Notes: generated by a model not told the origin, from the letters alone. DNA of 64,000 bases from Candidatus Methanophagales archaeon (GCA_017883965.1 JAFNKG010000005.1:194-64193), one strand, 5' to 3'. Shown: positions 25,838 to 45,810, numbered from the stretch's first letter. Numbers and translations: made by a program.

Positions 25838-26126
25838 TATAAAAAGAGAGGAAAAGGAGATGGGAAGTAAATTCAGTAGTGCGGTGAAATGTTTTATTAA
25901 ATGTCCAGTGTGCACAATTAGACTTATGCGGAGTTTTGGTTCGTATGATCAGGGGACAGAGGAATTAATAAAGAAAAGTTGTCCTGAAGTAGACGTGGAG
26001 AGCTTAGGTTATTACTTCGGTATTTTCCAGGCTATTATCTTCGTTGTTCTTTGTGTGATGGCGTATCTATTTTTTTACGCGCTTAAAGTCGTTCTCTTTT
26101 ACCGGGAAATGCTTTTCCCTCCATGA
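25838..26126 (+). repeat. Left copy of an approximately 290 bp direct repeat flanking the HEAT/IS66 block
   Basis: ggagatgggaagtaaattca...aaatgttttattaaatgtccagtg recurs at 28481..28770. Confidence 0.6.
25860..26126 (+). CDS. Small tail-anchored Cys-rich protein (CF.K.PV...R.M / CPEV family)
   Basis: 88 aa. Contains KCFIKCPVCTIRLM...SCPEVDVESLG followed by one TM helix. It belongs to the same family as 43097..43378 and 43432..43704 and the C-terminal tail of 43987..45810. Confidence 0.5.
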   Translation: MGSKFSSAVKCFIKCPVCTIRLMRSFGSYDQGTEELIKKSCPEVDVESLGYYFGIFQAIIFVVLCVMAYLFFYALKVVLFYREMLFPP

Positions 26127-26236
26127 AAACCTTGAGCGTGTTTGATACCCGCCTTTTCCCCGAAGCACATTCCGTAATTGCTCAATATATTGTAAACCTT
26201 CAAATGAGAAAATTATGTCCCAATATTTAATTTAAC

Positions 26237-26944
26237 TTAAAAGCTTTTCTTTATCTTCTCCAAGGCTCCTCTCGCAGCCTCTCGAACATAGCGATCTTCA
26301 TCCTTCAAAGCCTGAATCAAAGACTCTGTCGCTCTTTCATCCTCTATCTCTCCGAGAGCTTCTGCCGCACTCTTTTGAACCTGCCAATCTTCATCCTTCA
26401 AAGCCAGGATTAAAGGCTCTACCGCTCTTTCATCTCTTATCCCTCTAAGAGCTATTGCAGCTCCCCATCGAACAAGCAAACGTTCGTCCTTCAAAGCCTG
26501 AATTAAAGGCTCTACTGCTCTTTCACCCCCTATCCATCTAAGAGCTTGTGCAGCTCCCCATCCAACATAATCATGTTCATCATTCAAAACTTGAATTAAC
26601 GGTTTTACCGCTCTCTTATCTCTTATCTTTCCAAGAGCTAGCGCCGCACTCTTCCGAACACTCCAATCTTCATCCTTCAAAGCCTGAATTAAAGGCTCTA
26701 CTGCTCTTTCATCCTTTATCTCTCCGAGAGCTTCTGCCGCTTTCCATCGAACAAACTCATGTTCATCCTTCAAAGCCCGAATTAAAGGCTCTACCGCTCT
26801 CTTATCTCCTATCTCTCCAAGAGTTTCTGCCCCTATCCATCGAACATACTTATTTCTATTATTTAATGCTTTTATCAGTCCATCAACGTCTTTCTTCTCT
26901 TCCAATTTATATGCTTTGAACATATCAACTATCCCCATCTTCAC
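26237..26944 (-). CDS. HEAT-repeat (PBS-lyase HEAT-like) protein
   Basis: Six or more repeats of [28 protein letters not shown]. Confidence 0.8.
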
Positions 26945-26953
26945 ACCTTTTTA

Positions 26954-27397
26954 CTATTTCGTAACATTTACTGTCTGGCTAAATATTTGCTGATCGCTCT
27001 TTAAATCTATAATTACCAATTTCCCGACTTTCCCCTCTGTTATGTTTATATCCTTTTCTAATTTAGCTACTTCACCAGGTTCAAACTTCGCAATTACACT
27101 TGATTCAGGCCCATTTAATACTAAAGCACCACCTTCTTCAGTGAGATCCGGAGCAGATATATCAGGTGTCCATATACATTTCGTGTTTGCAAACCATATG
27201 ATATCTCCGCCTTGATGTGTTATTATTAGGTTCTTTGCACTTGCAGATGTTTGTGTGATATGTAAAAGTGGTTGTGGTAGTTTTGGTGGAGCAAACGTTA
27301 TAACAGCTGCAACCGCAATTATCACCCCAATCAGGAAAATAGCGCTACCGATTACTGACCAGTCCACACGAGGGTTTTTTTTAAATGTTTTTTTCAT
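26954..27397 (-). CDS. Membrane-anchored/secreted hypothetical protein
   Basis: 147 aa. The N-terminus has a basic stretch followed by a hydrophobic helix (KKNPRVDWSVIGSAIFLIGVIIAVAAVI), then a beta-rich domain. Confidence 0.45.
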   Translation of the reverse strand: MKKTFKKNPRVDWSVIGSAIFLIGVIIAVAAVITFAPPKLPQPLLHITQTSASAKNLIITHQGGDIIWFANTKCIWTPDISAPDLTEEGGALVLNGPESSVIAKFEPGEVAKLEKDINITEGKVGKLVIIDLKSDQQIFSQTVNVTK

Positions 27398-27839
27398 TTT
27401 TTTCTTTTTATTAGATGTTTTTCTTCATGTTATTTAAATATTTTGATTTTTTGCTGTGTCACATAAATAATAAAATAGGTATCTATCCCATATTCCGCAC
27501 TTTAAAATTTTAAGGATATTGTTTTCTGAAATTTTTATTTCCCTTTTTGTCTTAATTTCACCGCTTTGGAATGATTATCGAATAAGAATTTCGGAAAAGG
27601 ATCTAAAACATCTGAGGAATGTGGTAGAGAAAGTGATAGATAAGCACAAAGAACATTGGTAAAAGTTACCAATAAATATAAGATCATGGAATAGATACAT
27701 AGGAGGGGACGTTTTTTAAAAATCTGCCATGTTTAGCTTTTAAAAGCAAGTTTAAAAATTACGTAATGCATTCAACAATCCCCCTTAACCGAACACATAT
27801 GAAATTCATCCGAATGTACAAATCCTAAGCCAAAAAGCG

Positions 27840-28462
27840 TGGTCCTCCTTTTGGGCACAAAGGGACTTCACGCAAAAAGCCCGAAAGGGTGGATAAAGCA
27901 GTCATCATCCGGTTTGAAGCTTGCCCTCACTGCGGAGGTGAGCTAAAAGAATTGGAGGATGTGGGGATAGATATGTGGAAGAAATAGTCCCTATTCCAAT
28001 CCTCGTTATCAGGTATATCATTAAAGGGGGCTACTGCAAGAAATGTGGCAAGGTTGTTTATCCTGAGGTTCCTGAGACAATCGGAAAACGCTAAAAACCA
28101 GCCAGGACCGGGAGAGGGTATATGCCGAGTTTGTGAAAAGGCTGGAGGAGTTCGTAACGAAGGAGGGGAAATGGAAGCACTACAAAGTGAAAATGCTGGC
28201 GAAGCGTGCTTTTAAGTACAGGAATGAACTCTTCACTTTTATCCTCGTGCCCGGTGTAGAGCCCACGAATAACGTTGCTGAGCGAGCACTCCGACCAAGG
28301 GTGAGGCAAAGGAAGATATGGGGTGCTTTAGAACTGAAAAAGGTGCCAAAAACAGTGATATCGTAATGAGCGTTCTGGAGACAATGAAAAAGCTGGAAAA
28401 AGATCTGCTCATTCATGGTAAGGAATATGTCCTCCGCAAACTTTCTCAAAAAGGTGAATAGA
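27840..28462 (+). mobile_element. Degraded IS66-family transposase (TnpC) remnant, a pseudogene with internal deletion and frame breaks
   Basis: Three fragments in different frames are visible. ACPHCGGELKELEDVG and GYCKKCGKVVYPEV are the zf-IS66 CxxC pairs. The C-terminal fragment contains EPTNNVAERALRPRVRQRKIW, the IS66 DNNxAER...GRKNW motif. Confidence 0.6.
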
Positions 28463-28480
28463 TACTAAATCATAAAGCTT

Positions 28481-28770
28481 TTATATAAAAGGGGGAAAAA
28501 GGATGGGAAGTAAATTCATCAGTGCGCTGAAATGTTTTATTAAATGTCCAGTGGACTCAGCGAGACTCATGCTGACTTCGGGTTACGAATCGAGACCTGT
28601 GGAATCAATAAAGGCGCGTTGTCCCGAAGTAGAAGTGGAGAGTTTTGGTTTTTACGTAGGTCTTTTCATGGGTATTATCTTCGTTGTTCTCTGCGTGATG
28701 GCGTATCTATTTTTTACGCGCTTAAAGTCGTTATCCTGTACCGGGAAATGCTTTTCCCTCCATGAATTCA
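28481..28770 (+). repeat. Right copy of the approximately 290 bp direct repeat
   Basis: Near-identical to 25838..26126 with indels that cause a frameshift. Confidence 0.6.
28503..28765 (+). pseudogene. Frameshifted second copy of the small CPEV tail-anchored protein
   Basis: MGSKFISALKCFIKCPV... is nearly identical at DNA level to 25860..26126. The C-terminus continues in another frame (ORF 28544..28765 ends ...YREMLFPP, as the intact copy does). Confidence 0.5.
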
Positions 28771-28816
28771 AAAAATCGAAATGCTTTTTATTTGTGTATC
28801 TTTTATATTAAAAAAT

Positions 28817-30208
28817 ATGGATAGTGGAATACTGCCTGAATTGAGGGAGGCGCTATCAGCGGGGGCGGGGTATTCGCTGCTGATAAAGGGGGAGCCGGGA
28901 ACAGGGAAGACAATGCTTGCATTTGAGATGCTCGACGAGTTCGGGGGCGACAATGCTGTTTATCTTTCAGCGAGGATTTCACCCCCCTCTCTTTACAAAC
29001 AATTTCCATGGCTGAAAAAACGTATCGGTTTTAGCGTGATAGATGCAACTAAGTTGTATCTCTCATCAAAAGCATTTCCAAGGGCGCGCACTTTCTCTGA
29101 CATTCTTTACCTGAAAATGGTACAGGAAAAAAAACCCGCTACGCTCGTAATTGATAGCTGGGAGGCGATAGCATCGGAAGTAAAAAAGGAAGAGATAGAA
29201 ATGCTGGAAGCTGCGATAACTGACCTGATAAGGAATTATGCAACGCAATACGAAATGAATTTGATACTCATATCAGAAAGAAGTGGGACAACCCCGCTCG
29301 ATTATATTGTTGATGGAATAGTAGAGCTAAGCCGCATAACCATTGACTACCGGAGGGCGAGGGAAATGGTGCTAAAGAAATTAAGAGGCGTCAGAATAGA
29401 CCAGCACAAATATGGTTTTACCTTAGATGGTGGCAGATTTCGTTTCTTCGCTCCTTTCGAGCGGAGGAAAATAGAGAAGCCGAGAAGGGTAGAGGTTGTG
29501 CCAAATACTCCCACACATATATCTACGGGGTGTGTGGAGATAAATAGGATTTTGGGTGGTGGATTAAGTAAGGGAAGCACCCATATTATAGACTATGGAG
29601 ATGATTTATCTCTATTAGGATACCAATCCATCGTTTCTCACATGATTATAAACAGTATACAGCAAGGGAATTATTGTGTGAAGATTCCGAGTAGTGGATG
29701 GGATGAGAGGAGATTAAGGAGGGGGATATTGCCCTTCGTGAAGGAAGAGGATTATATGAAGTATTTCACAATCTTTGAGATAAGAAGGGAGAAGAAAGAA
29801 GTAAGAGAGAACGTGAAGGTTTTGAAAGGCGAATCAATGGAGGAAGATTTTCCATTGTTCACTGATTTCATTTCCAATTTAGAACCTCCGGTCATGGTTA
29901 TTATCGGAACGGATTTGTTAGAGTATCAATATCGTTTGAAAACAGTGACCAACCTTGCGAGAATGTTGGAGTTATTCTCATATTGGATAATGGAGTTGAG
30001 AGAGGCAGGAAATGTAGGAGTATTTGGAATGCCCACCGGAGGCGCATTGGGCGAAGAGCTGGGTCACATGGTAACGAATCGCTGGAAGATGACTGTGCTT
30101 GATAAGGGTGTTATCCTCTATTGCAATCGCCCTGATACCAAATTACATTGCGTGGAGAATATTATCACCGAAGAAACTCTTAAGTTAAAGCTCACTCCTT
30201 TTGTGTGA
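28817..30208 (+). CDS. KaiC/RecA-superfamily two-domain ATPase; domain 1 has an intact P-loop and domain 2 a degenerate one
   Basis: Contains GYSLLIKGEPGTGKTMLAFEML (Walker A). The second domain has the GGGLSKGSTHIIDYGDDLS loop in place of a P-loop. The start was set at MDSGILPELREAL by alignment with the paralog at 41014. Confidence 0.65.
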   Translation: MDSGILPELREALSAGAGYSLLIKGEPGTGKTMLAFEMLDEFGGDNAVYLSARISPPSLYKQFPWLKKRIGFSVIDATKLYLSSKAFPRARTFSDILYLKMVQEKKPATLVIDSWEAIASEVKKEEIEMLEAAITDLIRNYATQYEMNLILISERSGTTPLDYIVDGIVELSRITIDYRRAREMVLKKLRGVRIDQHKYGFTLDGGRFRFFAPFERRKIEKPRRVEVVPNTPTHISTGCVEINRILGGGLSKGSTHIIDYGDDLSLLGYQSIVSHMIINSIQQGNYCVKIPSSGWDERRLRRGILPFVKEEDYMKYFTIFEIRREKKEVRENVKVLKGESMEEDFPLFTDFISNLEPPVMVIIGTDLLEYQYRLKTVTNLARMLELFSYWIMELREAGNVGVFGMPTGGALGEELGHMVTNRWKMTVLDKGVILYCNRPDTKLHCVENIITEETLKLKLTPFV

Positions 30209-30226: not shown

Positions 30227-30574
30227 TCACTTTTTACGAAAAATCTCCACGCCCTCTTCTAAAGCTTTTCTTATGAAGAAATTACCTTCGCTCTTCATCT
30301 TTTCTACCTCCTTCTCTGTATAAGGAAATACATCCACCCCTACCGGGAACCGAGAAGGTAAAAAGCGAGGTATCCTTTTCAAGAATGCCTCTCTCGACTC
30401 TCTCAATATCACAAGCAGGTCTATATCACTCCGAACAAAGGAGCCGAAGAGGAGCACACGCTCTACTTCAGGGTGTTTTCCCCCTATCTCTTTCAGATAT
30501 CTCCTGAGCGATTCTTCCACCAACTTCTTATCGAAATATCTTATCCTCACAGAATCTGACAATTTCCTCTGCAT
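30227..30574 (-). CDS. Minimal nucleotidyltransferase (MNT)
   Basis: Contains VLLFGSFVRSDIDLLVIL. Confidence 0.7.
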   Translation of the reverse strand: MQRKLSDSVRIRYFDKKLVEESLRRYLKEIGGKHPEVERVLLFGSFVRSDIDLLVILRESREAFLKRIPRFLPSRFPVGVDVFPYTEKEVEKMKSEGNFFIRKALEEGVEIFRKK

Positions 30575-30734
30575 ATCCTATTACCCTTTCTGCTCCTTCT
30601 CTTGTGTAAAAATCTAAAGGTGCACCAGAAGGATAGGAATTGGGATAATCTTCATCCTCAAGAGCATGCCGAGCATGCTCCAAATCCCTTTTTGCCTGCC
30701 TTAGCCAATCTTCATCTCTTCTCGCCATTTTCAC
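30528..30734 (-). CDS. Short HEPN-like protein (68 aa, possibly truncated) overlapping the MNT
   Basis: DWLRQAKRDLEHARHALE and YTREGAERVIGYAEEIV resemble the N- and C-terminal HEPN helices of 12816..13214. The central part is missing. Confidence 0.4.
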   Translation of the reverse strand: MKMARRDEDWLRQAKRDLEHARHALEDEDYPNSYPSGAPLDFYTREGAERVIGYAEEIVRFCEDKIFR

Positions 30735-30836: not shown

Positions 30837-31823
30837 TTACTGGCTTGCCCTCGATACTTCAGCGGATAACAACCTGTATTCCTCATACGCCCTTTTTAGA
30901 AACTTCGATAGCACTATTGATGCACAATAAAATATCACTAACGCAAAAAATCTTGCATCTCTGAAAAGGAAATCCATTGGCACAAAAGCTTCTTCCGCTA
31001 AGCCCGCTAAGCTATACCATCTCATTCCATAGTAAACAAGAACATAAATGTTTATAGTGGTTAGACCAATGGCAGTTCCATGATAGACCTTAACCAGTTC
31101 TAACCAGTCTTTCTGTTTCCTGGGCATAGAATATATATAAGCGAAAAAGAGCCAGCCCATGATGAAAAGAGCAATACCTGAGCACATACTTTCCACTATG
31201 GTTATATTGAAGTCAATGCTTATGACTGTTCGCCATAAAAACGCTAAACCTACTATCACTAATAATGTTCGTTCATCAGTTATCACCGTGCCTATTAGTT
31301 CTTTCATGCCCATTTCTCTCAGCTTTTTAACCCTTGGGTATAAATATGGTGATATGAGATGCAGAAGACCCTTCTCTTTGGATAGCGATATATAATCCTC
31401 GTGCATCTTTTTTACATACTTCACTGACCATAGAACCGCACAATAAAACACCACTAATGCGATATATCTTATATCTCTGAAAAGGAAATCCATTGGCGGA
31501 TAAGCTTCTACTTGCAGTAACTCGAACCATCTCATTCCATAGTAAATAACAACGTAAATATTTATAGAGACCATGCTAACGGCAATCCCTTGACAAATCA
31601 AATTCGACATTACCCAGCCCTCCAGTTTCTTGGACTTGTGATACATGTAAGCAAAGAGAACCCAGCCAAATATGAAAATAGCAATGCCTGAACACATACT
31701 TTCCCAAGGGGCTATCTTTCCATCAAGACTAATGACCGTTCGCCATAAAATCGCTACAAATATTATCGCTATTAATGTTCGCCCATCCATTATCACTTTG
31801 CCTACGGAATCTTTTATGCCCAT
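30837..31823 (-). CDS. Polytopic membrane protein built from two tandem homologous halves
   Basis: Residues 1-165 and 166-328 align: MGIKDSVGKVIMDGRTLIAIIFVAILWRTVISLD... versus MGMKELIGTVITDERTLLVIVGLAFLWRTVISID... Confidence 0.55.
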   Translation of the reverse strand: MGIKDSVGKVIMDGRTLIAIIFVAILWRTVISLDGKIAPWESMCSGIAIFIFGWVLFAYMYHKSKKLEGWVMSNLICQGIAVSMVSINIYVVIYYGMRWFELLQVEAYPPMDFLFRDIRYIALVVFYCAVLWSVKYVKKMHEDYISLSKEKGLLHLISPYLYPRVKKLREMGMKELIGTVITDERTLLVIVGLAFLWRTVISIDFNITIVESMCSGIALFIMGWLFFAYIYSMPRKQKDWLELVKVYHGTAIGLTTINIYVLVYYGMRWYSLAGLAEEAFVPMDFLFRDARFFALVIFYCASIVLSKFLKRAYEEYRLLSAEVSRASQ

Positions 31824-32228: not shown

Positions 32229-33263
32229 GTGTTAAAAGTGTTAAAAGGGAGGGTCAAGAGATTTGAGGGGTTAAAGGAGGAGATAATTGACAGAAATCTA
32301 TGTTCATACTGTGGAGCTTGCGTTTCCTTCTGTGAACATCTCGAACTTGGACCTAACGCACCAATGTTAAAAGAAGAGTGCCCGCTCGATAAGGAGGGAG
32401 TGCTGAAGTGTAGCGAGAATGGGACTTGCTATGATATATGTCCGATGACGGAAACGGATATAGAAGGTTTAGAGGAGACGTTTTTGGATCCCGAAGGCAT
32501 GAGAGATGAGCATTTTGGCATCTACAAGAAGTCAATCGCCGGAAAAACATCAATAGAAGGGCAGGATGGAGGGGTAGTTACTTCTATGCTGGTCGCAGGC
32601 GTGGAAAAAGAGCTATTTGATTGCGTTATCGTGGCAGAAAGGGTGGAAGGCTACAATGCGGTTCCAAAGATAGCAGAGGATGTAGATACGATAAAAAAAG
32701 CAAAGGGGACAAAATATGTGCAATGCCCCATGGTATCGAAGATAGGGGAAGCGGTGAAAAGAGGGAAAAGAAGAATTGCGATTGTCGGGACAGCATGCGA
32801 GATAAGAGCAGTTCGGAAAATACAGTCTGTTTTGCTAAAAGAAGTCCCACAGATAGGGATTACCACCGTTGGACTTTTTTGTTTCGAAAGTTTTTACTGC
32901 GATAAGTTCGTAAACGAGACGAAGGAGTTATTAGGAATTGACCTTTCGTCTGCCTCTAAAATTCAGATAGCAAAGGGTGAATGTGAGGTTACGGTGAAGG
33001 GGAGGCATTATAAAACAAAAATAACCAATCTGGAAGAGATAGTGAGGGACAGCTGTCGCTATTGTGATGATTTTACTGCGAGGCTTGCGGATATTTCTGT
33101 CGGGTCGGTAGGTAGTGCAGAGGGGTATTGCACCGTAATCGTCAGGTCTGAGAGGGGGGAGCAGCTTTTGGATTTGATTGAATTCGCCAGAGGCGAGGTC
33201 AATAAAGAGGAAATCAGTAAGATAGTGCGGTACAAAAAGGTGAAGATTGAGGATAGAATATGA
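32229..33263 (+). CDS. F420-hydrogenase/dehydrogenase beta-subunit family protein (FrhB/FdhB/FpoF-like) with N-terminal Fe-S motifs
   Basis: CSYCGACVSFC is a 4Fe-4S motif. IEGQDGGVVTSMLVAG matches FrhB_FdhB_N, and IAIVGTACEIRAVRK matches FrhB_FdhB_C. The stop codon overlaps the hdrA start. Confidence 0.75.
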   Translation: MLKVLKGRVKRFEGLKEEIIDRNLCSYCGACVSFCEHLELGPNAPMLKEECPLDKEGVLKCSENGTCYDICPMTETDIEGLEETFLDPEGMRDEHFGIYKKSIAGKTSIEGQDGGVVTSMLVAGVEKELFDCVIVAERVEGYNAVPKIAEDVDTIKKAKGTKYVQCPMVSKIGEAVKRGKRRIAIVGTACEIRAVRKIQSVLLKEVPQIGITTVGLFCFESFYCDKFVNETKELLGIDLSSASKIQIAKGECEVTVKGRHYKTKITNLEEIVRDSCRYCDDFTARLADISVGSVGSAEGYCTVIVRSERGEQLLDLIEFARGEVNKEEISKIVRYKKVKIEDRI

Positions 33264-35502: not shown

Positions 35503-35554
35503 ATAGAGGGAAAAAGAATAACTTTATATATTTTGTTTCCTATAAACAGTTCTG

Positions 35555-37063
35555 ATGTTGAGTGTAGTTGAACATTTTCCTGTGCTTATCGTTGTAATAT
35601 CGCTGTTTTCTGCATTCACCATCTTGATTGTCGGCTCTGTGAAGAAGAAATCGTGCTGTTTCATTTCCATTGGAACCATTCTCGTTCAATTCGTCATGGC
35701 TGTTTTTATCCTGCGTCATGTCCTGACTGAAGGAACCATTCATTACTGGCTCGGGGGATGGAGCCCGCCATGGGGCATAGAATATGTCGTAGATGCCTTG
35801 AATGCATACGTATTGGTCATACTTCTGGTTTTAGCTTTGATATGTGCGATATATTCAAAGAGGAGCATAGAGCACGAATTGCCGCATAAAATTGTCCCTT
35901 TTTATACCATTTATCAACTCCTTATCACTGGTCTGTGCGGTATAACCGTGACCGGCGATATTTTTAATATGTATGTGTTTGTCGAGATAACGTCCTTATC
36001 TGCGTATGCGTTAGTAGCATCGAGGGGTAAAATAGCGTTAAAGGCGAGTTTTACTTACCTCGTATTGGGCTCCATCGGTGCTTGCTTCTTCTTGTTGGGG
36101 GTAGGTTTCCTGTATTCAGTAACGGGTTCGCTGAACATGCACGACCTCTCGCTCTTATTACCACCTTTATACGGGAATAGAGTAGTTCAGGCGGCTTTTG
36201 TTTTTTTCATAGTTGGACTAAGCATAAAAATGGCGCTATTCCCGCTTCATACGTGGTTACCAGATGCACATGCCTTTGCACCTTCGGAGATAAGCGCAAT
36301 GCTTTCCGGTATAATCATCGAGGTTTGCACCTATGCATATATAAGGGTTGCGTTCTCTGTATTCACGCTGGAGTTCATCACGCTTTACGTGCCTATATCC
36401 GGTATACTTTGCTGGATATCTGCAATAGCCATGATCTTTGGTTCTATTCTTGCGATAGCGCAGTTTAATTTAAAGAGGATGCTTGCTTATTCGAGTGTAG
36501 CGCATATGGGCTATATTATGCTCGGTGTGGGGCTTTCCACTTCCAACCCTTTAGGACTAACTCCTCCTTTGATGCACATACTGAACCACGCATTGATGAA
36601 AGGATGCTTGTTCCTGGTTGCCGGTGCTTTTATTTACAAGGCGGATTTGTGGAATATAACGGATTTCCGGGGTTTGGGAAGAAAAATGCCTTATACATGC
36701 ATGGCCTTCATTTTAGCTGCTCTCTCAATGTTAGGAATGCCACCAAGCGTGGGATTCGTCACGAAATGGTATCTAATAATTGCCGCTTTGGAGGCAAAAC
36801 AATTTATATTTGTGGCGGTGATATTCTTTAGCACGCTTCTTATGGTATTTTATTTTTGGCGTGTGATAGAATATATGTATATAAGGGTGGGAGACGAGGA
36901 AGGAAAAGAAAAGGAAATAGAGGAGATACCGAGGAGTATGCTCATCCCGGTGTTAGTACTCGCATTTCTCTGTTTCATCATGGGAATTATCTGGCTCACT
37001 GAGATACCTTTACCCATATTGGACGCAGTTAATTCAATGTATGGATTGGGGGTGGTGCCATAA
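35555..37063 (+). CDS. NuoN/MrpD-family antiporter-like subunit (set B, D1')
   Basis: 502 aa. The N-terminal 70 aa are nearly identical to those of 19107..20639. Contains LAYSSVAHMG. Confidence 0.8.
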   Translation: MLSVVEHFPVLIVVISLFSAFTILIVGSVKKKSCCFISIGTILVQFVMAVFILRHVLTEGTIHYWLGGWSPPWGIEYVVDALNAYVLVILLVLALICAIYSKRSIEHELPHKIVPFYTIYQLLITGLCGITVTGDIFNMYVFVEITSLSAYALVASRGKIALKASFTYLVLGSIGACFFLLGVGFLYSVTGSLNMHDLSLLLPPLYGNRVVQAAFVFFIVGLSIKMALFPLHTWLPDAHAFAPSEISAMLSGIIIEVCTYAYIRVAFSVFTLEFITLYVPISGILCWISAIAMIFGSILAIAQFNLKRMLAYSSVAHMGYIMLGVGLSTSNPLGLTPPLMHILNHALMKGCLFLVAGAFIYKADLWNITDFRGLGRKMPYTCMAFILAALSMLGMPPSVGFVTKWYLIIAALEAKQFIFVAVIFFSTLLMVFYFWRVIEYMYIRVGDEEGKEKEIEEIPRSMLIPVLVLAFLCFIMGIIWLTEIPLPILDAVNSMYGLGVVP

Positions 37064-39153: not shown

Positions 39154-39241
39154 ACTTCTTTATATTATTCTTCAGCAAATGGTCACGAAAGAAATGATTA
39201 GGAACGTGGTGGATGCAACAAGAGATGGGGTGGTGATGTAA

Positions 39242-40753
39242 ATGATACCTTATATCCTTTTTCAAATAACAGCAGTACCAATTATAGCCTCCGTATTCAT
39301 ATTTTTAACCAGACCAAGATTAGGTGAGAAAGCAGGCTGGATAGTGGGTATTACCCTCTTATACACTACTGCGCTTCTTTGTATGGTTGGCATCAGAGTT
39401 TATCAGGGCACAATAATTTATGAGGAATATCCATTAGCCCCGGCGGTGAATTTTAATCTTTTAGCCGACGGTTTGAGTATACCTGTTGCATTGATAATGA
39501 ATCTGTGCTGTGTAGTCCTGGCATTTTACTCAATACACTATGTAGGACACAGAATAGAGGTAATATATGGAGAAGTGGATAAAGAGACATGGCTTATGTA
39601 TTACACGAGGTTTTTCTTTTTATTTCCCTTCTTTTCCACGGGTTTCATGGGTATTGCCTTTTCTACAAACCTTATAGCGATGTATTTCTTCATGGAACTA
39701 TTGACTATTATTCCCCTTTATTTCATAATGGCTCAATTTGGTTATTCCGATTTTATAGAGCGTTATAAAGTTGCCCTAATGTGTCTTTTCTGGGGAATTG
39801 CTGGGGCGACCCTCTTCCTGATTGGTATCCTTTTAGCATATACCCAGATAGATAGCTTTGAAATCTCGGAGTTGCGCACTCTTTCGGGAAATCCAGTAAT
39901 TACCTGGATTATCTTATGCATGCTTCTTGGTTTATTTTCTAAGCTGGCAATATTTCCACTTCATGTTTGGATGCCCTGGGTTCACGCAGAGCATCCCACA
40001 TGCATAGCTGGATTGCTTGCGGTTTATGCGAATATAGCAGCTTATGTGATGGTTAGGGTTCTCATCTTGCCACTTTATAATGATTTCAAAGTTTTTGGCA
40101 TACCTATTATGGTGTTGGCTCTGGTAACCATGGTATATGGCTCTCTTCTTGCTATGGCTCAAAATGACGTGAAACGATTCGCTGCTTGCTCAACTATAAG
40201 CCAGATATCATATTCTGTCCTTGGACTGAGCGCACTCACAATCTGGAGTATTGAAGGGGGGCTCTTTTTCTTTTTGAGTCACATCATGGGTAAAGCAATT
40301 CTCTTCTCAACCGCTGGTATATTAGTCTATGTGACAGGGATCAGGGATATGAGAGAGATGGGTGGACTCGCATCCAGGATGCCAATAACTGCTACGCTCT
40401 GGATAATGGGCGCTATGATGCTCTCAGGCCTTCCGCCTTTTAGCACCTTCGCAGCAGAATGGATAATGTTCACAGGCATCTTCATGTTTGGAGCACATGG
40501 TCCTTCTATTGCACTGATAGTTGCAATTCTGGGTGTTTCTGCAGTTGGATTAACGATTGCTTACACATTCTGGTCCGCGAAGAGAATATTTTTTGGTCCA
40601 TTGAAACCTAATCTGTCAAATGATGAAATCAGGGACCCACCATTAACGATGTGTGTTCCACTTCTACTTTTAGCTGTTGTATCAATCATCCTTGGCCTGT
40701 ATCCTAAACCCATAATGGATCTTTTTCATTTTGTGATAGGAGGAGTAATATGA
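39242..40753 (+). CDS. NuoN/MrpD-family antiporter-like subunit (set B, N1')
   Basis: 503 aa and a paralog of 24296..25795. VWMPWVHAEHPTCIAGLLA is identical between the two. Confidence 0.8.
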   Translation: MIPYILFQITAVPIIASVFIFLTRPRLGEKAGWIVGITLLYTTALLCMVGIRVYQGTIIYEEYPLAPAVNFNLLADGLSIPVALIMNLCCVVLAFYSIHYVGHRIEVIYGEVDKETWLMYYTRFFFLFPFFSTGFMGIAFSTNLIAMYFFMELLTIIPLYFIMAQFGYSDFIERYKVALMCLFWGIAGATLFLIGILLAYTQIDSFEISELRTLSGNPVITWIILCMLLGLFSKLAIFPLHVWMPWVHAEHPTCIAGLLAVYANIAAYVMVRVLILPLYNDFKVFGIPIMVLALVTMVYGSLLAMAQNDVKRFAACSTISQISYSVLGLSALTIWSIEGGLFFFLSHIMGKAILFSTAGILVYVTGIRDMREMGGLASRMPITATLWIMGAMMLSGLPPFSTFAAEWIMFTGIFMFGAHGPSIALIVAILGVSAVGLTIAYTFWSAKRIFFGPLKPNLSNDEIRDPPLTMCVPLLLLAVVSIILGLYPKPIMDLFHFVIGGVI

Positions 40754-41013
40754 GTGCTTGAAAAACTAAGACTTGACCGACAATTACGCTTGACACAGAC
40801 TGGTTCTACCGGATAACAGGATGTATTAAAACGCTTTTTCTCCAATCAAATTCATCGCTTTGTTATCCATTTAATTGCCCGCTGTTCTCGTCACTCGAAA
40901 CTTCCCCTTCTTCCATTGACAACGACCTTTCTTTGAAAAGAAAGCGTGACCAAAGAAATATGTTTTTAATAACAAAAAACCTTTTTATATATATAAAAAC
41001 AAACTTTTTGATT

Positions 41014-42402
41014 ATGATGGAAGCGAAAATGCCCCCGGAGTTAGCTGAGGCATTCTCCTCACCGAGAGGCTATTCACTGCTGATAAAGGGAGCGCCGGGG
41101 ACAGGGAAGACGATACTCGCACTTGAGCTAATCGGCGAGTTAGGCGAAGTTAATGCCGTTTACCTTTCAGCCCGGGTCTCCACTCACGCCCTTTACGACC
41201 AGCTCCCCTGGCTGGACGAATGTGTCAGCCCGTTGAACCTGATAGATGCCACAAAGTTCTACGTATCTTCGGATATAGTTCCAGGAGTGCAATCTTTCCC
41301 TGATATTCTTTACACAAGGTTAGGGAAAATAAAAAAACCCGCTACCGTTGTAATTGATAGCTGGGAAGCGATAACATCTCAGATGGAGAGGGAAAAGACA
41401 GAAGCGCTGGAAGCGGCGATTACCGAATTAGCAAGACATGCCGAAATGAAATTGATACTCGTGTCAGAGAATCTTGGTATATCATCGCTTGATTACATGG
41501 TGGATGGGATAGTAACGCTAAAGCGTTTAACGCTGAATTACAGAAGGGCGAGGGAATTAGAGATAGAGAAATTAAGGGGTATCCGAATAGACCAGCCAAA
41601 ATATGCATTCTCCTTAGAAGGAGGCAGATTTCATTATTTCAGACCTTTCGAGCGGAGGAAAATAGAGAAGCCGAGAAGAGTAGAGATTGTGCAAAATAGC
41701 GAAGCATACTTGTCTACCGGGGTCCGGGACTTAGATAAAATTCTGAGCGGGGGATTCAGAAAGGGAAGTTTTAATATTATAGAAGCCGGAGATGATATGT
41801 CTGTTTTGGGTTACCAATCCATTATCGCTCACATGATTATAAACAGCATACAGCAAGGGAATAACTGTGTATGTATTCCATGTTGCGGCTGGAATGAGCG
41901 GAGATTGAGAAGGGGGATATTGCCTTTTGTAAATGAAGAAGACTATAATAAGTTTTTCACTGTATTCGAGATAGGTTCAGAGGAGAAGGAAGATGAGGGA
42001 GAGAATGTGAGAATATTGAAAGGAGAGTCGATGAAGACGGACTTTCCCAAATTCCGGGATTTCATTTCTGATTTGGAGCCGCAAGTAATGGTAATTATCG
42101 GAGCGGATACGCTGGAGTATCCATATCAGTTGAAAGAGAAAGGTAAAGTAGGTGAAATGGTGGGGATGTTATCCCGGTTGATGATAGATGTGAGGGATGC
42201 AGATAATGTAGGTGTATTTGGAGTGACTCCGGGGCTTGTGCTGAGCAGTGAGCTGATTCACCTCTCGTCAGTGCACCTGAAGTTGACCGTGCTCGATAGA
42301 AGTGTTATCCTTTACTGCAATCGCCCTGATACCAAAGTACATTGTCTGGAGAATGTTGTTACTGATGATAGTCTTAGAATAGAACTCACTGCTATTGTAT
42401 AG
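41014..42402 (+). CDS. KaiC/RecA-superfamily two-domain ATPase, paralog of 28817..30208
   Basis: Contains GYSLLIKGAPGTGKTILALELI. It shares the stretch FERRKIEKPRRVE with the first copy, and the DNA there is identical over about 35 nt. A TATA-like ttttatatatataaaa lies just upstream. The start was trimmed to the internal ATG. Confidence 0.65.
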   Translation: MMEAKMPPELAEAFSSPRGYSLLIKGAPGTGKTILALELIGELGEVNAVYLSARVSTHALYDQLPWLDECVSPLNLIDATKFYVSSDIVPGVQSFPDILYTRLGKIKKPATVVIDSWEAITSQMEREKTEALEAAITELARHAEMKLILVSENLGISSLDYMVDGIVTLKRLTLNYRRARELEIEKLRGIRIDQPKYAFSLEGGRFHYFRPFERRKIEKPRRVEIVQNSEAYLSTGVRDLDKILSGGFRKGSFNIIEAGDDMSVLGYQSIIAHMIINSIQQGNNCVCIPCCGWNERRLRRGILPFVNEEDYNKFFTVFEIGSEEKEDEGENVRILKGESMKTDFPKFRDFISDLEPQVMVIIGADTLEYPYQLKEKGKVGEMVGMLSRLMIDVRDADNVGVFGVTPGLVLSSELIHLSSVHLKLTVLDRSVILYCNRPDTKVHCLENVVTDDSLRIELTAIV

Positions 42403-43007
42403 GGAGGAAGAAATATGGAGATAGACGTGCAGGTAATGGTAGGCAGCAACATAATTATCACCTTTGGCAGGGTAGACGTGGAGTTGACGAAAGAACAGGC
42501 GGAGAAACTAAAAGTACTTCTTGTAGATGCCCTTGAGAGAAGTGAGCGTAATCTTCTCCTCAGAGGGGTCGATAAAGGCAAGTAAAGTCCTTTCCGTGAA
42601 GAGGAAGAAGTCATCGCCACATTTCTCTCTTATCTCTTCTATACTCTTATTATCGAAATAAATCCGCTTTCCTCTTTCATCCCCTGCTCTTTGAACAGAA
42701 GCAATAAGCTCGATAATATTCTTCTCTTTCCTTTCATTTTTCTCTTCCCCTTCGGGCTCTTCATCAACCATTTTATTATTTTCATTTATTGCTTCTTTTT
42801 CGTTAATAAAAAGCTTTTCTTTTTGATTTGAAATCTTTGGTATGAAAATACTTTATATTTTCATGCTTATGGGTGTCCCGGCGGGTCATGAAAGTTTCCT
42901 TTTGTTTTATCTCACTGGATATTAAAGGACTGAGAACCTGCATTCTGCATCTTCATTGAAATTTACCGAAAACTTTATAAAGCACTGGTGCCATATAAGT
43001 AATTGGA

Positions 43008-43021
43008 GACACAAGTGTCAC
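43008..43021 (+). promoter_or_regulatory. GACACA-a-GTGTCAC inverted heptamer upstream of the small-protein genes
   Basis: The sequence is gacacaagtgtcac. Confidence 0.3.
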
Positions 43022-43096
43022 GAAAGGCACAAAGAAGGAATGCCTCCGAAAAGGGATAAGGTAAAAGTGGTGTCCCGAAAGGGATAAAAAAAGAAG

Positions 43097-43378
43097 GTGG
43101 TGGGAATGGGAATAAAAAAAATAGTTGGCACGTGGCGATGCTTTGGCAAGGACCCGGTGCTCGCAACAAGGATAATGATAGATGTGGCGGGTGCGAAGTT
43201 ACTGGGGACATTTAATCCTGTATATAAGAAATACGAGCAGGATTTGGAAGTGACAAAGAGAAGATGCCACGAAGAAGCGGTCCAAAACCTGGCGATTGGG
43301 ACAGTGGCATTGATGTCGCTTGTCTTCGGGACTCTCTACCTGTTTATTTACCTGACGTATAGGGTGCTGTGGATTTAA
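43097..43378 (+). CDS. Small tail-anchored protein (CF.K.PV..TRIM family), copy 1
   Basis: 93 aa. Contains WRCFGKDPVLATRIMIDVAGAKLLGTFNPVYKKYEQDLEV followed by one TM helix. The gene and its leader are tandemly duplicated. Confidence 0.5.
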   Translation: MVGMGIKKIVGTWRCFGKDPVLATRIMIDVAGAKLLGTFNPVYKKYEQDLEVTKRRCHEEAVQNLAIGTVALMSLVFGTLYLFIYLTYRVLWI

Positions 43379-43431
43379 TTGAAGCTGTGGCGATAATTCC
43401 CGAAAGGGGATAAAATAGGAGGTGAAAGGGA

Positions 43432-43704
43432 ATGGAAATAAAAAAAATTGTCGGCACGTGGCGATGCTTTGGCAAGGACCCGGTGCTCGCAACAAGGATA
43501 ATGATAGATGTGGCAAGTGCGAAGTTACTGGGGACATTTAATCCTGTATATAAGAAATACGAGCAGGATTTGGAAGTGTGTAAGAGAAATTGCCCTGAGG
43601 TATCATGTCATAGTCTGGCTATCGGCACGGGGGTCCTGCTGGCAGTTCTTTTCGGCGTTTTTTGCGCAGTAGCGTATGCGATTCAGGTATTGGTCATTCC
43701 ATAA
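43432..43704 (+). CDS. Small tail-anchored protein (same family), copy 2, with a CPEV motif
   Basis: 90 aa. The N-terminal 45 aa are identical to those of copy 1, then NCPEVSCHSLAIG followed by a TM helix. Confidence 0.5.
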   Translation: MEIKKIVGTWRCFGKDPVLATRIMIDVASAKLLGTFNPVYKKYEQDLEVCKRNCPEVSCHSLAIGTGVLLAVLFGVFCAVAYAIQVLVIP

Positions 43705-43766
43705 ACGCCTGATTCAAGGCAGTAAAGAAGAAACAGATTTTGTCATCGCATAAAGATTAGGATACC

Positions 43767-43994
43767 ATGTTAAAAATGAGGGATGGAATGGAACTTGGAA
43801 AGGAGTTGAAAGGACTTATTATAGCTGGTATATGTGGTATAGGCGTAGCATTAGCTACATCTGCCTTATTTGTGGAGCATCATGAACATTTTTTTGGTTT
43901 CTACGCCCTATACGGGGCGATAGGAGTGGGATTCTTTCTATTAACCACGAAGATATTGTCCGCAATACAAAAGGAGGGGAGTCAAGATGATTGA
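43767..43994 (+). CDS. Small membrane protein with 2 TM helices
   Basis: 75 aa. It overlaps the downstream antiporter gene by 8 bp, in the same relative position as 22197..22433. Confidence 0.4.
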   Translation: MLKMRDGMELGKELKGLIIAGICGIGVALATSALFVEHHEHFFGFYALYGAIGVGFFLLTTKILSAIQKEGSQDD

Positions 43995-45810
43995 AATAAG
44001 TAGCATACCCAATATACCTCCTGTTCTCATTTACTTCGCAGGAGCTGCATTAATACCCCTGCTCGGAAAGGGTAAAGTGCGGAAGATTTATCTCATCATA
44101 TTAGCCGCGCTTGGATTGATATGTGTAACGTTATTAAGACCGCAGCCACCAAGTTGGGTATTCCCTATTCTACCGGGATTTGAACTGACACTCTTGCATG
44201 TAGATAGATTGAGCCTTATAATGGGCTACATATTTGTCATAGCGGGAGGTGCTGCGATATTATACTCGGTTAGCACTATAAAGGAGGCGGGACAATATGT
44301 GTGTGCGTTGCTATACCTGGGAAGCGCTTTAGGAGCGGTATTCGCGGGGGACTTCTTCACCCTGTATATCTTCTGGGAGATAATGGCGTTCTCTTCTCTT
44401 GGCTTGATATGGTATAGCCAAACGGAGAGGGCGACGAACGCAGGGATGCGATACATTTTGTTTCACCTGTTTGGTGGTTGTGCCCTTCTTGGCGGGATAA
44501 TAATTCATTATATGAATACCGGTTCTATCGCAGTAGGACCAGTAGAGCTTGGTATAGGATATTTTCTTTTGCTTATGGGGATAGGAGTAAATACTGCATT
44601 TATACCACTTCATACCTGGCTGCCGGATTCATATCCGAAGGCAACGATAGCTGGCACCATTTTTTTGTCCATATTCACGACAAAAATGGGTGTATACGTG
44701 CTTGCGAGGACCTTTTCGGGTGTAGAAGCGGTAGCATACATGGGCGGAGTGATGTGCCTCTATGGCGTTATATTTGCGATATTACAGAATGATGTAAGAA
44801 AACTTCTTTCGTATCACATTGTGAGTCAGTTGGGCTACATGGTAGCAGCGGTTGGAATAGGCACTTCAATAGCGATAAACGGAGGAATTGCACATCTTTT
44901 TAACAACCTGTTGTTCAAGACAACCCTGTTCATGTGTATGGGTGCAGTAATATACAGGACAGGGAAAAACAACCTCACAGAACTTGGTGGACTGGCGAAG
45001 AAGATGCCCGTGACGATGATAACATGTGTGATTGCGGCTCTTTCCATCTCCGGTGTTGCAGGCTTTAATGGATACATAAGTAAAGGAATGGTAATACACG
45101 CTGTGGAATTGGAGGGAATGCGTGTCCTCGCACTCGCTTTGATGCTGGGTTCAGTAGGCACACTTATTTCATTCTTAAAACTCACGTATTTCACGTTTTT
45201 CAGTAAAAATGAGAATATAGAAGCGAAGGAGGCGCCGTTACCCATGCTTGTTGCGATGAGCGTTACCGCTTTCCTTTGCGTTGCTATCGGGTTATACCCA
45301 AAGTTGCTTTACGGAATATTGCCTTACAAAGAGGTGGCGTTACATTATCAGGCATACGCACTCGGACACGCTTTAGGAACAGTAGAGTTGGTGCTGATGA
45401 CTGTTTTTATGTTCTTCTCGCTGGGGTTCTTCGTACCTCATGAGAAGATAACACGTGACATGGATTATATATACAGAAAGGTAGGGAGAGGGTTTATATG
45501 GTTCTGTGAGAAACCGTTAGTGAGTTTTGCGAATTCCATTGACGAGGGAATAATGAGAATAGCTTCTTCTTCTGTATGGTTCAGCAGGAATCCAGTAGCG
45601 GCATCAAGAATAATGGTAGATATGATGGGTGCAGTGGTGTTGAGACCTTTCAATCCAGTATATATGCGCTATGAACGAGACTTAGAAGAGGTGAAGAGAA
45701 TGTATCCTGGGGAGCCGGTGCAAAGCCTGGCTATCGGTAGTGGAGTGCTGCTGGTACTCGTCTTCTTCGCTTTCTATTTGGCGATATATTTGATGTATGG
45801 GCTAATGTAA
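43987..45810 (+). CDS. NuoM/MrpD-family antiporter-like subunit fused at its C-terminus to the small-protein domain (set B, M1')
   Basis: 607 aa. Contains WLPDSYPKATIAGTIFL and LLSYHIVSQLGYM. The last approximately 75 aa (NPVAASRIMVDMMGAVVLRPFNPVYMRYERDLEEV...PVQSLAIGSGVLL-TM) match the proteins at 43097 and 43432. Confidence 0.8.
   Translation: MIEISSIPNIPPVLIYFAGAALIPLLGKGKVRKIYLIILAALGLICVTLLRPQPPSWVFPILPGFELTLLHVDRLSLIMGYIFVIAGGAAILYSVSTIKEAGQYVCALLYLGSALGAVFAGDFFTLYIFWEIMAFSSLGLIWYSQTERATNAGMRYILFHLFGGCALLGGIIIHYMNTGSIAVGPVELGIGYFLLLMGIGVNTAFIPLHTWLPDSYPKATIAGTIFLSIFTTKMGVYVLARTFSGVEAVAYMGGVMCLYGVIFAILQNDVRKLLSYHIVSQLGYMVAAVGIGTSIAINGGIAHLFNNLLFKTTLFMCMGAVIYRTGKNNLTELGGLAKKMPVTMITCVIAALSISGVAGFNGYISKGMVIHAVELEGMRVLALALMLGSVGTLISFLKLTYFTFFSKNENIEAKEAPLPMLVAMSVTAFLCVAIGLYPKLLYGILPYKEVALHYQAYALGHALGTVELVLMTVFMFFSLGFFVPHEKITRDMDYIYRKVGRGFIWFCEKPLVSFANSIDEGIMRIASSSVWFSRNPVAASRIMVDMMGAVVLRPFNPVYMRYERDLEEVKRMYPGEPVQSLAIGSGVLLVLVFFAFYLAIYLMYGLM

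Follow-up and report, generated by a model that had tools for sequence, protein, structure and literature searches.

Small membrane proteins of ANME-1 archaea as separately encoded copies of an antiporter-subunit tail

The window analysed here is the whole 64,000-nucleotide stretch of a Candidatus Methanophagales archaeon, a methane oxidiser of the ANME-1 group (GCA_017883965.1 JAFNKG010000005.1:194-64193), and all positions are counted from its first letter. It encodes a series of antiporter-like subunits, among which lie four small genes, s1 to s4 (Table 1). All four small ORFs, as well as the 607-codon ORF of the antiporter-like subunit L607, were found where the initial annotation had placed them, and in public records the small ORFs are all called as genes, although they are left as unannotated "hypothetical proteins". 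The genes of cluster 1 form an Mrp/Mbx-type membrane module without a redox module, and nothing resembling the peripheral redox module MbsJKLMN is encoded beside these antiporter clusters. The two-TM protein p75 is retained upstream of L607-type genes at four other loci (L029, L038, L054 and L056); it does not belong to the small-protein family.

Table 1. Genes and features of the window that are discussed in the text
Feature	Coordinates	Strand	Description
Rest of cluster 1	16019..22200	+	MrpF, MrpG, MrpE, MbhD, MbhE-like, MnhB, MrpC/NuoK, two MrpD-like (510 and 522 aa)
L616	22449..24299	+	Second PRK12668-type subunit (NCBIfam)
D499	24296..25795	+	NuoM-like antiporter subunit without extension; always precedes s1-type small gene
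s1	25860..26126	+	88 aa, subfamily A, four-Cys s1-type, C-terminal TM helix 53-71
s2	28503..28765	+	Subfamily A copy, KCPVDSARLM type, -1 frameshift in T run
GvpD/KaiC-like P-loop ATPase	28781..30208	+	Orthologue 40-182 bp after s1-type gene in 14/17 genomes
L696	37063..39153	+	Bona fide NuoL-type subunit, lateral helix
D503	39242..40753	+	D499 paralogue; last of N-L-M-like trio D502-L696-D503
Second GvpD/KaiC-like ATPase	40933..42402	+	Upstream of s3/s4 array
s3	43106..43378	+	90 aa counted from ATG; subfamily B
s4	43432..43704	+	Subfamily B copy in tandem with s3, 90 aa
p75	43767..43994	+	Two-TM protein, 8-nt overlap with L607 start codon
L607	43987..45810	+	PRK12668/MbsH'-type antiporter-like subunit, 607 aa
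Module inside L607	45547..45807	+	Residues 521-607; part copied in small proteins

The gene s1 starts 64 bp after D499, and the ORF of s3 opens with a GTG codon at 43097. Shine-Dalgarno-like sequences precede the start codons of the small genes (GGAGGTGA in s4). The frameshift that had been noted in s2 was confirmed: its T run holds six residues (28710-28715), against seven in s1 (26070-26076), and past this run frame +2 reads ...YALKVVILYREMLFPP* up to 28765. The shift falls downstream of the TM helix, an identical frameshifted ORF is borne by a second assembly (ENA scaffold_250), and an intact orthologue of 86 aa (P0020) was identified in locus L002.

Each small protein carries one hydrophobic helix at its extreme C-terminus, as had been proposed, with a Kyte-Doolittle 19-mer mean of 2.1-2.5 (residues 63-81 in s3 and 62-80 in s4) and only 7-17 residues beyond it, or 9-17 in s1, s3 and s4 alone. 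Amphipathic segments precede this helix, and 7-11 lysines and arginines lie on its N-terminal side, versus 0-2 on its C-terminal side. By this architecture the small proteins are tail-anchored membrane proteins, with a predicted orientation that places the N-terminal part in the cytosol and a likewise predicted insertion route. The initial annotation had described the part before the TM helix as a soluble domain; it is instead predicted as three short amphipathic helices and is not globular (AF2 model of s1: pLDDT 75, helices 2-14, 16-24, 31-40 and 46-85).

The small proteins form a real family that shares homology with the C-terminal ~87 residues of L607. In pairwise blastp, s3 and s4 are 73% identical over 82 aa, and s1 and s2 66% identical over 76 aa; between the two subfamilies, s1 and s4 share 34% identity (E 6e-10), and profile-profile comparison of 21 s1-type with 10 s3/s4-type sequences gave a probability of 96.4% (E 1.1e-9). 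The resemblance to the antiporter subunit that had been noted in the sequence was borne out, both by blastp (s3 versus L607 residues 521-607: 49% over 87 aa, E 1.5e-23; s4 versus residues 522-607: 44%, E 1e-19) and by hhalign of all small forms against the fused C-termini (99.7%, E 4e-25). The latter match persisted with the TM helix removed (98.6%, E 6e-16), and unrelated TM-rich C-termini, used as controls, remained below 3% probability.

We identified this shared region as native to an antiporter-like subunit of the PRK12668/MbsH' type, whose C-terminus it forms, and not, as had been supposed, as a separate module fused to one. L607 residues 9-602 align to positions 6-582 of the 584-position equivalog model NF009310/PRK12668 ("Na(+)/H(+) antiporter subunit D"), and both L607 (623.5 bits) and L616 (566.2 bits) score above its curated cutoff of 564 bits over their full length, including the tail. 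The C-terminal 129 aa of L607 alone match positions 478-582 of this model (E 5e-4). In the same search neither the small proteins nor the isolated 93-aa module gave a match, and the small proteins are thus not themselves members of NF009310. In L607 a 14-TM core is followed by TM15, a proximal segment, distal helices and TM16; its AF2 model places TM15 at residues 448-481, helices at 489-534, 536-552 and 557-572, and the terminal TM at 578-606, so that the module contains the last turns of the first of these helices, the two that follow and the terminal TM. The tail therefore lies C-terminal to the 14-TM core, after the additional TM15, a placement seen in L607 that applies to the small proteins by homology.

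In terms of position, the module corresponds to helix HL and TMH16 in the structures of MBS (MbsH'), Mrp (MrpA) and complex I (NuoL/ND5), where these two elements form a strap that joins neighbouring antiporter subunits. The best PDB sequence match of L607 is MbsH', and Foldseek alignments of L607 spanned ~640-705 columns when the partner was L-type (MrpA, NuoL and NdhF), versus ~480-490 for D/M/N-type subunits. We used L696 as the reference that ties the extensions to solved structures: it scores 475 bits against TIGR01974 (cutoff 407.5), phmmer aligns it to residues 50-593 of the 613 of E. coli NuoL (3rko_L) and also to NdhF, and its C-terminus matches NuoL/NdhF/FpoL models in the HL region. 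The link is thus an indirect one, in which homology runs from the extension of L607 to that of L616, whose proximal half is homologous to it (hhalign 99.9%, E 3e-31), from the distal half and TM16 of L616 to L696 (98.6%, E 7e-16; 96.8% without the TM), and thence to E. coli NuoL. For the amphipathic part of the module itself, hhalign without the TM gave no significant match to the HL of L616 or L696, and profile searches of the PDB gave no match to any solved chain.

The family was found almost exclusively in metagenome-assembled genomes labelled ANME-1/Methanophagales, with strict synteny. Besides database relatives (10 + 22; P0004 is identical to s3), we identified 46 loci in GTDB species genomes. 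Some 35 genomes bear 61 distinct copies that are intact, and positions, start codons and ribosome-binding sites are fixed among them. Median dN/dS in three subgroups was 0.33, 0.19 and 0.32 at deep divergence (pS 0.4-0.6), and the family is under purifying selection; conservation in related genomes, on which the initial annotation had made its proposal depend, is accordingly found. All 17 distinct s1-type orthologues are separate genes placed 50-104 bp after a D499/D503-type antiporter-like gene, and in other genomes D503 is directly followed by a subfamily A small gene. Subfamily B copies, single or in tandem arrays of one to three, lie directly upstream of L607/L616-type genes. This genetic tie to antiporter-subunit genes makes it reasonable to see in them, as suggested earlier, an accessory subunit of this membrane complex that has not been described before, although not in the form of a soluble metal-binding domain.

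Thus, s1 to s4 are conserved genes that each encode a separate copy of the tail of a Mrp/complex-I-type antiporter subunit, comprising its surface helix and last membrane helix, and their products most likely serve an unusual multi-antiporter complex as additional structural subunits, rather than being a new soluble metal-binding domain. More specifically, we think it probable that they act as free-standing HL+TM16-like straps of redox-module-free multi-antiporter complexes in ANME-1. The mechanism that we propose is modelled on the solved complexes: as free paralogues of the last part of the extension, with surface helices at the HL position and TM16 as anchor, the small proteins would insert tail-first, their N-terminal helices would lie on the cytoplasmic membrane surface, and antiporter-like subunits without such an extension would gain from them an additional strap or accessory subunit. 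The presumed partners of subfamily A are NuoM-like subunits of the D499/D503 type, and that of subfamily B is the L607-type subunit encoded just downstream, the partners being part of the presumed Mrp/Mbx-like complexes. The horizontal geometry of the helices, their role as a strap and their physical binding to the complex are inferred. A free HL+TM16 unit would presumably reach the cytoplasmic face with no need of a TM15. Since a full NuoL-type HL is already present in the trio D502-L696-D503, it is not obvious why D503 should need another strap.

The cysteines had suggested a different role, and the motif claimed for all members proved to be only in part a shared one. The complete pattern (C11-x3-C15-x2-C18 ... 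C41-P in s1) is fixed only in the s1-type orthologues, in which all four residues are invariant (17/17). In many other subfamily A members C15, C18 and C41 are swapped for S, R, Y, D, G, E or F; in subfamily B the motif is shared in part, with some lineages reading WRGF/WRSF and YPG/HPD; and none of the 20 fused or split forms has a cysteine at the motif positions (VWFS and YPGE in the fused module). Four ligand cysteines are thus not a property of the family, and their absence from the fused forms and variability in the s3/s4 subfamily make metal binding at most a lineage-specific add-on, for which the s1-type proteins alone are candidates. A metal or redox accessory subunit, with a putative Zn or Fe-S site at the cytoplasmic membrane surface serving as a structural staple, a redox sensor or an electron entry point, could coexist with a strap role, and is consistent with the invariance of all four cysteines in the s1-type proteins, with an AF2 model in which cysteines coincide with kinks or ends of helices (C15 before P16, C41 before P42), and with the loss in subfamily A, relative to B, of ~12 residues where the cysteines appear. 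However, searches of Pfam and NCBIfam gave no Fe-S or Zn family match for the small proteins, and cluster 1 has no redox module; we regard this reading as unlikely. Cys11 ([KR]CF), which is present in 59 of the 61 free forms and in no fused or split form, speaks for a metal or redox role and is a feature that the strap idea leaves unexplained.

The neighbouring ATPase genes raise the further possibility that the small protein is a membrane adaptor, recruiting the soluble GvpD/KaiC-like ATPase to the antiporter complex for its assembly, turnover or regulation. The ATPase gene that follows the s1-type gene is on the same strand, s2 lies 16 bp directly upstream of one ATPase gene, s3 and s4 lie downstream of the second copy, and nearly all loci have such ATPase genes at the flanks of their antiporter clusters. 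Yet an ATPase gene is the direct neighbour of only 4 of the 31 remaining genes of subfamily A and of hardly any in subfamily B, our literature searches on ANME-1 energy metabolism turned up no report that connects GvpD/KaiC-like proteins with Mrp, and the module, being derived from the tail of an antiporter, suggests a surface that binds antiporters; an adaptor role is accordingly quite doubtful. It is a long shot that both ideas hold together, such that a four-Cys s1-type protein with an Fe-S or Zn centre at the membrane surface and a co-transcribed GvpD/KaiC-like ATPase would form a redox- or ATP-controlled switch. This switch would control how a redox-module-free "super-Mrp" chain, built of four to eight antiporter-like subunits, is assembled or coupled. 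If true, this would be a previously unrecognised, regulated ion-translocating machine in ANME-1 energy metabolism.

Free copies might also be decoys or assembly micro-proteins that mimic the HL-TM16 tail of L607-type subunits and compete for its docking groove, so that the antiporter chain would be capped or remodelled, or its length or composition regulated. Subfamily B lies immediately upstream of the gene that it would mimic, its copy number varies between near-identical strains, and in one copy, P0010, a stretch of 88 bp is still 83% identical in nucleotides to the 3' end of L607, indicating that new copies keep arising. This is pure inference, however, and improbable in our view, as stable purifying selection and the strict pairing of subfamily A with extension-less subunits are explained at least as well by a stoichiometric subunit. 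Finally, the tandem array beside the parent gene, the frameshift in s2 and one "small" match in locus L024, which is evidently a piece of a disrupted fused gene, might suggest non-functional relics of partial duplications of the antiporter-gene 3' end, but this very improbable reading is already largely refuted by the low dN/dS over deep divergence, by the many intact copies with fixed positions and signals, and by the location of the s2 frameshift beyond the TM helix.

The reading of the small proteins as free-standing straps finds its closest counterparts in two solved complexes. MbsH' of P. furiosus MBS (PDB 6u8y chain X) contains TMH15, LoopTMH15-16, helix HL and TMH16 (PMC7684303). L607 resembles it in length (607 versus 618 aa) and has the same order of elements past the 14-TM core, namely TM15, linker, surface helices and terminal TM. 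In contrast, the small proteins of ANME-1 are separate genes with the distal helices and anchor only, and their amphipathic part has no detectable sequence similarity to the solved HLs. In MBH, MbhI is a separate TM1-Loop1-HL-TM2 subunit encoded after MbhH (PDB 6cfw; PMC8165549; PMC7684303). It is a free-standing lateral-helix subunit, as the small proteins are proposed to be, and like the s1-type genes its gene directly follows that of an antiporter-like protein. Forms that may be seen as intermediates were identified in seven ANME-1 genomes, in which the whole TM15-HL-TM16 extension forms a separate gene of 135-140 aa (for example at 7593-8015 in L012) that starts 3-4 bp after a 500-aa antiporter gene, with exactly the TM-HL-TM architecture and gene position of MbhI. 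The 88-93-aa proteins of the window differ in having a single TM and starting within the surface helices, with neither TM1 nor Loop1, the region of contact with the peripheral module in MBH; in addition, they are multi-copy, have conserved cysteines in subfamily A, and gave no sequence match to MbhI in PDB profile searches. Complex-I-type enzymes also have small accessory subunits with a single TM, for example cyanobacterial NdhP and NdhQ beside NdhD/NdhF; these single-pass peptides are specific to their lineage and presumably stabilise antiporter-like subunits. We take them to be unrelated in sequence to the small proteins and not derived from an HL-TM16 tail. The small proteins would thus represent a variant of the known HL + TM16 element, now as free-standing genes.

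The four small open reading frames (s1 to s4) and the 607-aa antiporter-like subunit L607 lie where the initial annotation had placed them, and the small ORFs are called as unnamed genes in the NCBI record. The module proposed to be shared by the small proteins and the tail of L607 is confirmed, well above chance. By blastp, s3 aligns with L607 residues 521-607 at 49% identity (E 1.5e-23) and s4 with residues 522-607 at 44%; identities among the small proteins are 73% (s3 and s4), 66% (s1 and s2) and 34% (s1 and s4), and databases hold 10 relatives of s4 and 22 of s1. We divided the small proteins into subfamily A (s1/s2-like, alignment A1) and subfamily B (s3/s4-like, alignment A2), and profile-profile comparison shows the two to be homologous (96.4% probability, E 1.1e-9), with about 12 residues of B missing from A. 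Each has a single strongly hydrophobic C-terminal helix, with few residues beyond it and an excess of Lys and Arg on its N-terminal side. Pfam and NCBIfam scans assigned no family to the small proteins or to a 140-aa form described below.

We compared C-terminal alignments by local hhalign, with the TM helices present and removed. The small forms match L607-type tails with 99.7% probability, and with 98.6% once TM is removed, and show no significant match to L616-type or L696-type tails in either case. Comparison of the small forms and these tails with unrelated TM-rich C-termini gave less than 3% with TM present, and these controls, together with the TM-less profiles, rule out an artefact of TM composition.

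s2 is frameshifted because a homopolymer has lost one T: the run is T6 at 28710-28715, and in s1 it is T7 (26070-26076). The shift falls after the TM helix, frame +2 then restoring an s1-like tail to 28765. A second assembly carries the identical frameshifted ORF, and an intact orthologue (P0020) is present in another genome.

The window belongs to an ANME-1 (Methanophagales) genome, and the nearest relatives of its small ORFs come from records named 'Methanophagales archaeon', a 'Halobacteriota archaeon' MAG and the Black Sea mat 'uncultured archaeon BSM_29040'. Searching 1.84 billion representative proteins with a module profile (A3, 89 positions) yielded just 21 sequences at E <= 1e-3, nearly all of 57-138 aa, with one full-length fused form of 622 aa. 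Scanning one genome for each GTDB species with profiles A1 and A2 identified 46 loci, nearly all labelled Methanophagales or ANME-1; a few carry unspecific or unexpected names (Methanosarcinales, Methanomicrobiales, Nitrosotalea, Bathyarchaeia, Syntrophoarchaeum), which we suspect to be binning or labelling issues. A metagenome scan added six more loci, with the arrangement unchanged. A local HMM, applied to the six-frame ORFs of every fetched locus, found both free and fused forms, with 61 distinct small members, seven free-standing proteins of 135-140 aa and 13 fused proteins (~600-630 aa). The fused forms were taken from these loci, a search with the C-terminal 129 aa of L607 having given four proteins, mostly fragments. 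Median pairwise Nei-Gojobori dN/dS is 0.33 for s1-type genes, 0.19 for other A genes and 0.32 for B genes (pS 0.4-0.6), indicating that the small ORFs, conserved in related genomes across the 46 GTDB loci, are genes under purifying selection. A reading as relics or pseudogenes is rejected on dN/dS and synteny.

L607 and L616, a second subunit of the same type, pass the curated threshold of NCBIfam NF009310 (PRK12668, 'Na+/H+ antiporter subunit D', 584 positions), whose positions 6-582 align with L607 residues 9-602; the C-terminal 129 aa of L607 alone match positions 478-582 (E 5e-4). Since the family model covers it, the tail is native to a known family rather than a domain added on, and the initial description of a module fused to an antiporter does not hold. 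Among solved structures, the best sequence relative of L607 is the P. furiosus MBS subunit MbsH' (6u8y_X, 618 aa, E 2e-51). In the AF2 model of L607 (pLDDT 77), a 14-TM core is followed by TM15 (448-481), a low-confidence linker, helices at 489-534, 536-552 and 557-572, and a terminal TM (578-606, TM16). The small proteins align onto residues 521-607, and the AF2 model of s1 is segmented in the same way (helices 2-14, 16-24 and 31-40, TM 46-85). The proximal extension contains an invariant Cys in an F-C-E-x-P-L motif (L607 ~510-516, window ~45514-45534), common to L607-type, L616-type and split forms (alignment A5).

Complex-I-type membrane arms share a universal strap, the lateral helix (HL) with its anchor. 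Foldseek aligned L607 over 640-705 columns with L-type subunits (MrpA, NuoL, NdhF) and over 480-490 with D/M/N-type subunits; rmsd over the long alignments is ~29 Å, so that the extension matches in element order and not in modelled position. L696 is a true NuoL, which passes the TIGR01974 cutoff, aligns with E. coli NuoL up to residue 593 of 613, and matches NuoL, NdhF and FpoL models at its C-terminus in their HL region. By hhalign, L607-type and L616-type tails match at 99.9% (E 3e-31; TM removed, 99.9%, proximal half only), L616-type and L696-type at 98.6% (E 7e-16; TM removed, 96.8%, distal half), and L607-type and L696-type at 95.3%, mostly through TM16 (TM removed, not significant). Against all PDB chain sequences, the module profile A3 and a whole-extension profile (A5) gave chance-level matches only, recovering none of the MbhI, MbsH' or NuoL tails, and a Foldseek search of the PDB with the s1 model returned nothing below E 4.5. 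The module appears to lie after the proximal extension and up to TM16, at the place taken by HL in L616, L696, NuoL and MbsH', and seems to share TM16 with these proteins, its amphipathic part having diverged beyond detectable similarity.

In seven ANME-1 genomes we identified a split arrangement: 3-4 bp separate a ~500-aa antiporter gene from the start of a following gene of 135-140 aa, which contains TM15, an FCEGPL-type proximal segment, the distal helices and TM16. It matches fused tails with 100% probability and is nested among them in a neighbour-joining tree, where subfamily B forms a clade adjoining the fused tails and subfamily A a separate clade. Mean identity is 40% between fused and 140-aa forms, 30% between fused and B, 19-21% between B and A, and 17-19% between fused and A. 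A sister strain has an additional B copy, P0010, which shows 54-55% protein identity to fused tails and whose DNA is 83% identical, over 88 bp, to the 3' end of L607; evidently, free copies continue to arise through partial duplication of the 3' end. P0010 lies ahead of a p75-like gene as the third small copy on ENA scaffold_250, which is 99.98% identical to window 33888-43682 over 9,795 bp and diverges inside the s4 3' end (window 43682, locus L001 9795 onward), a divergence that stems either from copy-number variation between strains, from a breakpoint left by recombination in the tandem array, or from chimeric assembly at the repeat.

In all 17 distinct cases, a gene of the D499/D503 type (NuoM-like, without a C-terminal extension) precedes the four-Cys s1-type gene by 50-104 bp. 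Other subfamily A genes follow D503-type, L616-type or 140-aa genes, with one or two paralogues of a 328-aa membrane protein convergent with them in 23 of 31 cases in related genomes, and subfamily B genes lie directly upstream of L607/L616-type genes, singly or in tandem arrays of up to three. The most economical reading is that the small proteins are minimal HL+TM16-like units with an autonomous topology. When encoded on its own, such a unit could dispense with TM15, whose sole topological role would be to return the chain to the cytoplasmic face. Homology and synteny suggest that such units may serve as extra straps or accessory subunits for antiporter-like subunits without their own extension, in complexes that would resemble Mrp/Mbx membrane arms without a redox module.

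The strap reading leaves the cysteines unexplained. Of 61 distinct free forms, 59 have the [KR]CF cysteine (C11), some B lineages reading WRGF or WRSF at this site, and all 20 fused or split tails lack it (VWFS, VWVS or ASFG). The 'CPEV' cysteine is nearly invariant in A; the motif is Y/H/R-P-G/D-x in B and fused forms. The full C-x3-C-x2-C...CP pattern occurs in s1-type orthologues only, where it is invariant. The conserved cysteines initially attributed to the module are therefore not a module property. C11 possibly has a role specific to free forms, and a metal or disulfide function is possible for s1-type proteins, although we consider a metal or redox role as their explanation unlikely.

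A GvpD/KaiC-like ATPase gene lies 40-182 bp downstream of the s1-type gene in 14 of 17 cases, and nearly all related loci have ATPase orthologues at the corresponding positions, suggesting a conserved functional link of a KaiC-family ATPase to these membrane complexes. In the window the s1-to-ATPase adjacency is broken by an inserted block, and s2 now precedes the ATPase gene. That the small proteins are adaptors for this ATPase is slightly less probable again than the metal role. Least probable of the three is a function as decoy or assembly micro-proteins. All are partly compatible with the strap reading.

Features of the antiporter region (window coordinates, except for the split forms, given by locus)
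Feature	Coordinates	Strand	Description
RadC-like JAB protein	9860-10426		
Defence/toxin-antitoxin-type genes	10428-13214 and 30227-30734		OLD-family AAA/TOPRIM nuclease and others
Cluster 1	16019-26126		MrpF, MrpG, MrpE, MbhD, MbhE-like, MnhB, MrpC/NuoK, MrpD-like x2 (510 and 522 aa), L616, D499, s1
L616	22449-24299		PRK12668/MbsH'-type
s1	25860-26126		small single-TM protein
Between clusters			inserted block, s2, GvpD/KaiC-like ATPase gene, MNT/HEPN pair, 328-aa membrane protein (opposite strand)
Inserted block	26237-28450		HEAT/PBS-lyase repeat gene (-), archaeal pilin-like gene (-), IS66 transposase remnant
IS66-family remnant	28133-28366		PF03050, E 4e-8
s2	28503-28765		frameshifted
GvpD/KaiC-like P-loop ATPase genes (two)	28781-30208 and 40933-42402		PF07088/PF06745; flank antiporter clusters
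328-aa membrane protein	30837-31823	-	two ~160-aa halves from internal duplication; no family assignment
FrhB-like and HdrA pair	32229-35233		directly upstream of NuoN/L/M-like trio D502-L696-D503
Cluster 2			FrhB, HdrA, D502, L696, D503, second GvpD/KaiC-like ATPase, two small conserved ORFs, s3, s4, p75, L607
L696	37063-39153		NuoL-type
p56 and p87m	42415-42771	+ and -	convergent small ORFs, 3' ends overlapping; p87m acidic
s3	43106-43378		small single-TM protein
s4	43432-43704		small single-TM protein
p75	43767-43994		two-TM protein; stop overlaps L607 start by 8 nt
L607	43987-45810		PRK12668/MbsH'-type
135-140-aa split forms	L012 7593-8015		also L014, L017, L027, L028, L029, L046

ANME-1 carries unusually many antiporter-like genes, here eight Proton_antipo_M (PF00361) genes within 30 kb in two groups (window 16019-25795 and 35555-45810), and no redox module attached, none of the NuoB/C/D/H/I-like or hydrogenase-like type being found near the antiporter clusters of the window. 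Cluster 1 is a complete Mrp/Mbx-type membrane module with four antiporter-like subunits, and antiporter-cluster gene order is kept across many ANME-1 MAGs. Among the fetched loci, the FrhB-like/HdrA pair adjoins the D502 trio only in the window and the near-identical sister contig L001, making a functional link doubtful; in other loci the 328-aa membrane-protein gene directly precedes D502. The p75 protein, which is unrelated to the module and matches no Pfam or NCBIfam family, is kept upstream of L607-type genes in several loci and may be a further small subunit. The p56 and p87m ORFs, with no Pfam or Rfam match, retain 79-91% protein identity across loci, the neighbouring ATPase being less conserved. 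Defence or toxin-antitoxin-type genes, including the OLD-family nuclease, the RadC-like protein and two nucleotidyltransferase/HEPN pairs, lie amid the bioenergetic clusters. An Rfam scan of the whole window identified no RNA family.

ANME-1 has the lateral-helix element in three versions: fused to the subunit, split off whole (~140 aa), and reduced to minimal HL+anchor proteins of 80-94 aa in multiple copies. Should the small proteins be straps, they would illustrate how antiporter chains can be lengthened by modules, and would point to an ion-translocating complex, as yet uncharacterised, in an uncultured methane oxidiser; metal binding by the four-Cys version, if real, would make it a new type of accessory subunit. 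At present, the results are an evolutionary and structural refinement and not a new principle. Searchable literature on ANME-1 Mrp/antiporter-like genes and on MrpD/HdrA/FrhB does not describe these clusters or proteins, and the portions of two ANME comparative-genomics papers reached by term look-ups make no mention of them. In MBH, the equivalent element is encoded as a separate subunit, MbhI (PMC7684303; PMC8165549), and the ~500-aa antiporter gene followed by a 135-140-aa gene in ANME-1 is the same arrangement as MbhH/MbhI. Free-standing lateral-helix subunits are thus already known, as is the fused tail within a curated family; what appears to be new is a conserved, multi-copy and largely ANME-1-restricted family of truncated HL+anchor proteins, the presence of fused, split and minimal forms side by side, and the four-Cys variant.
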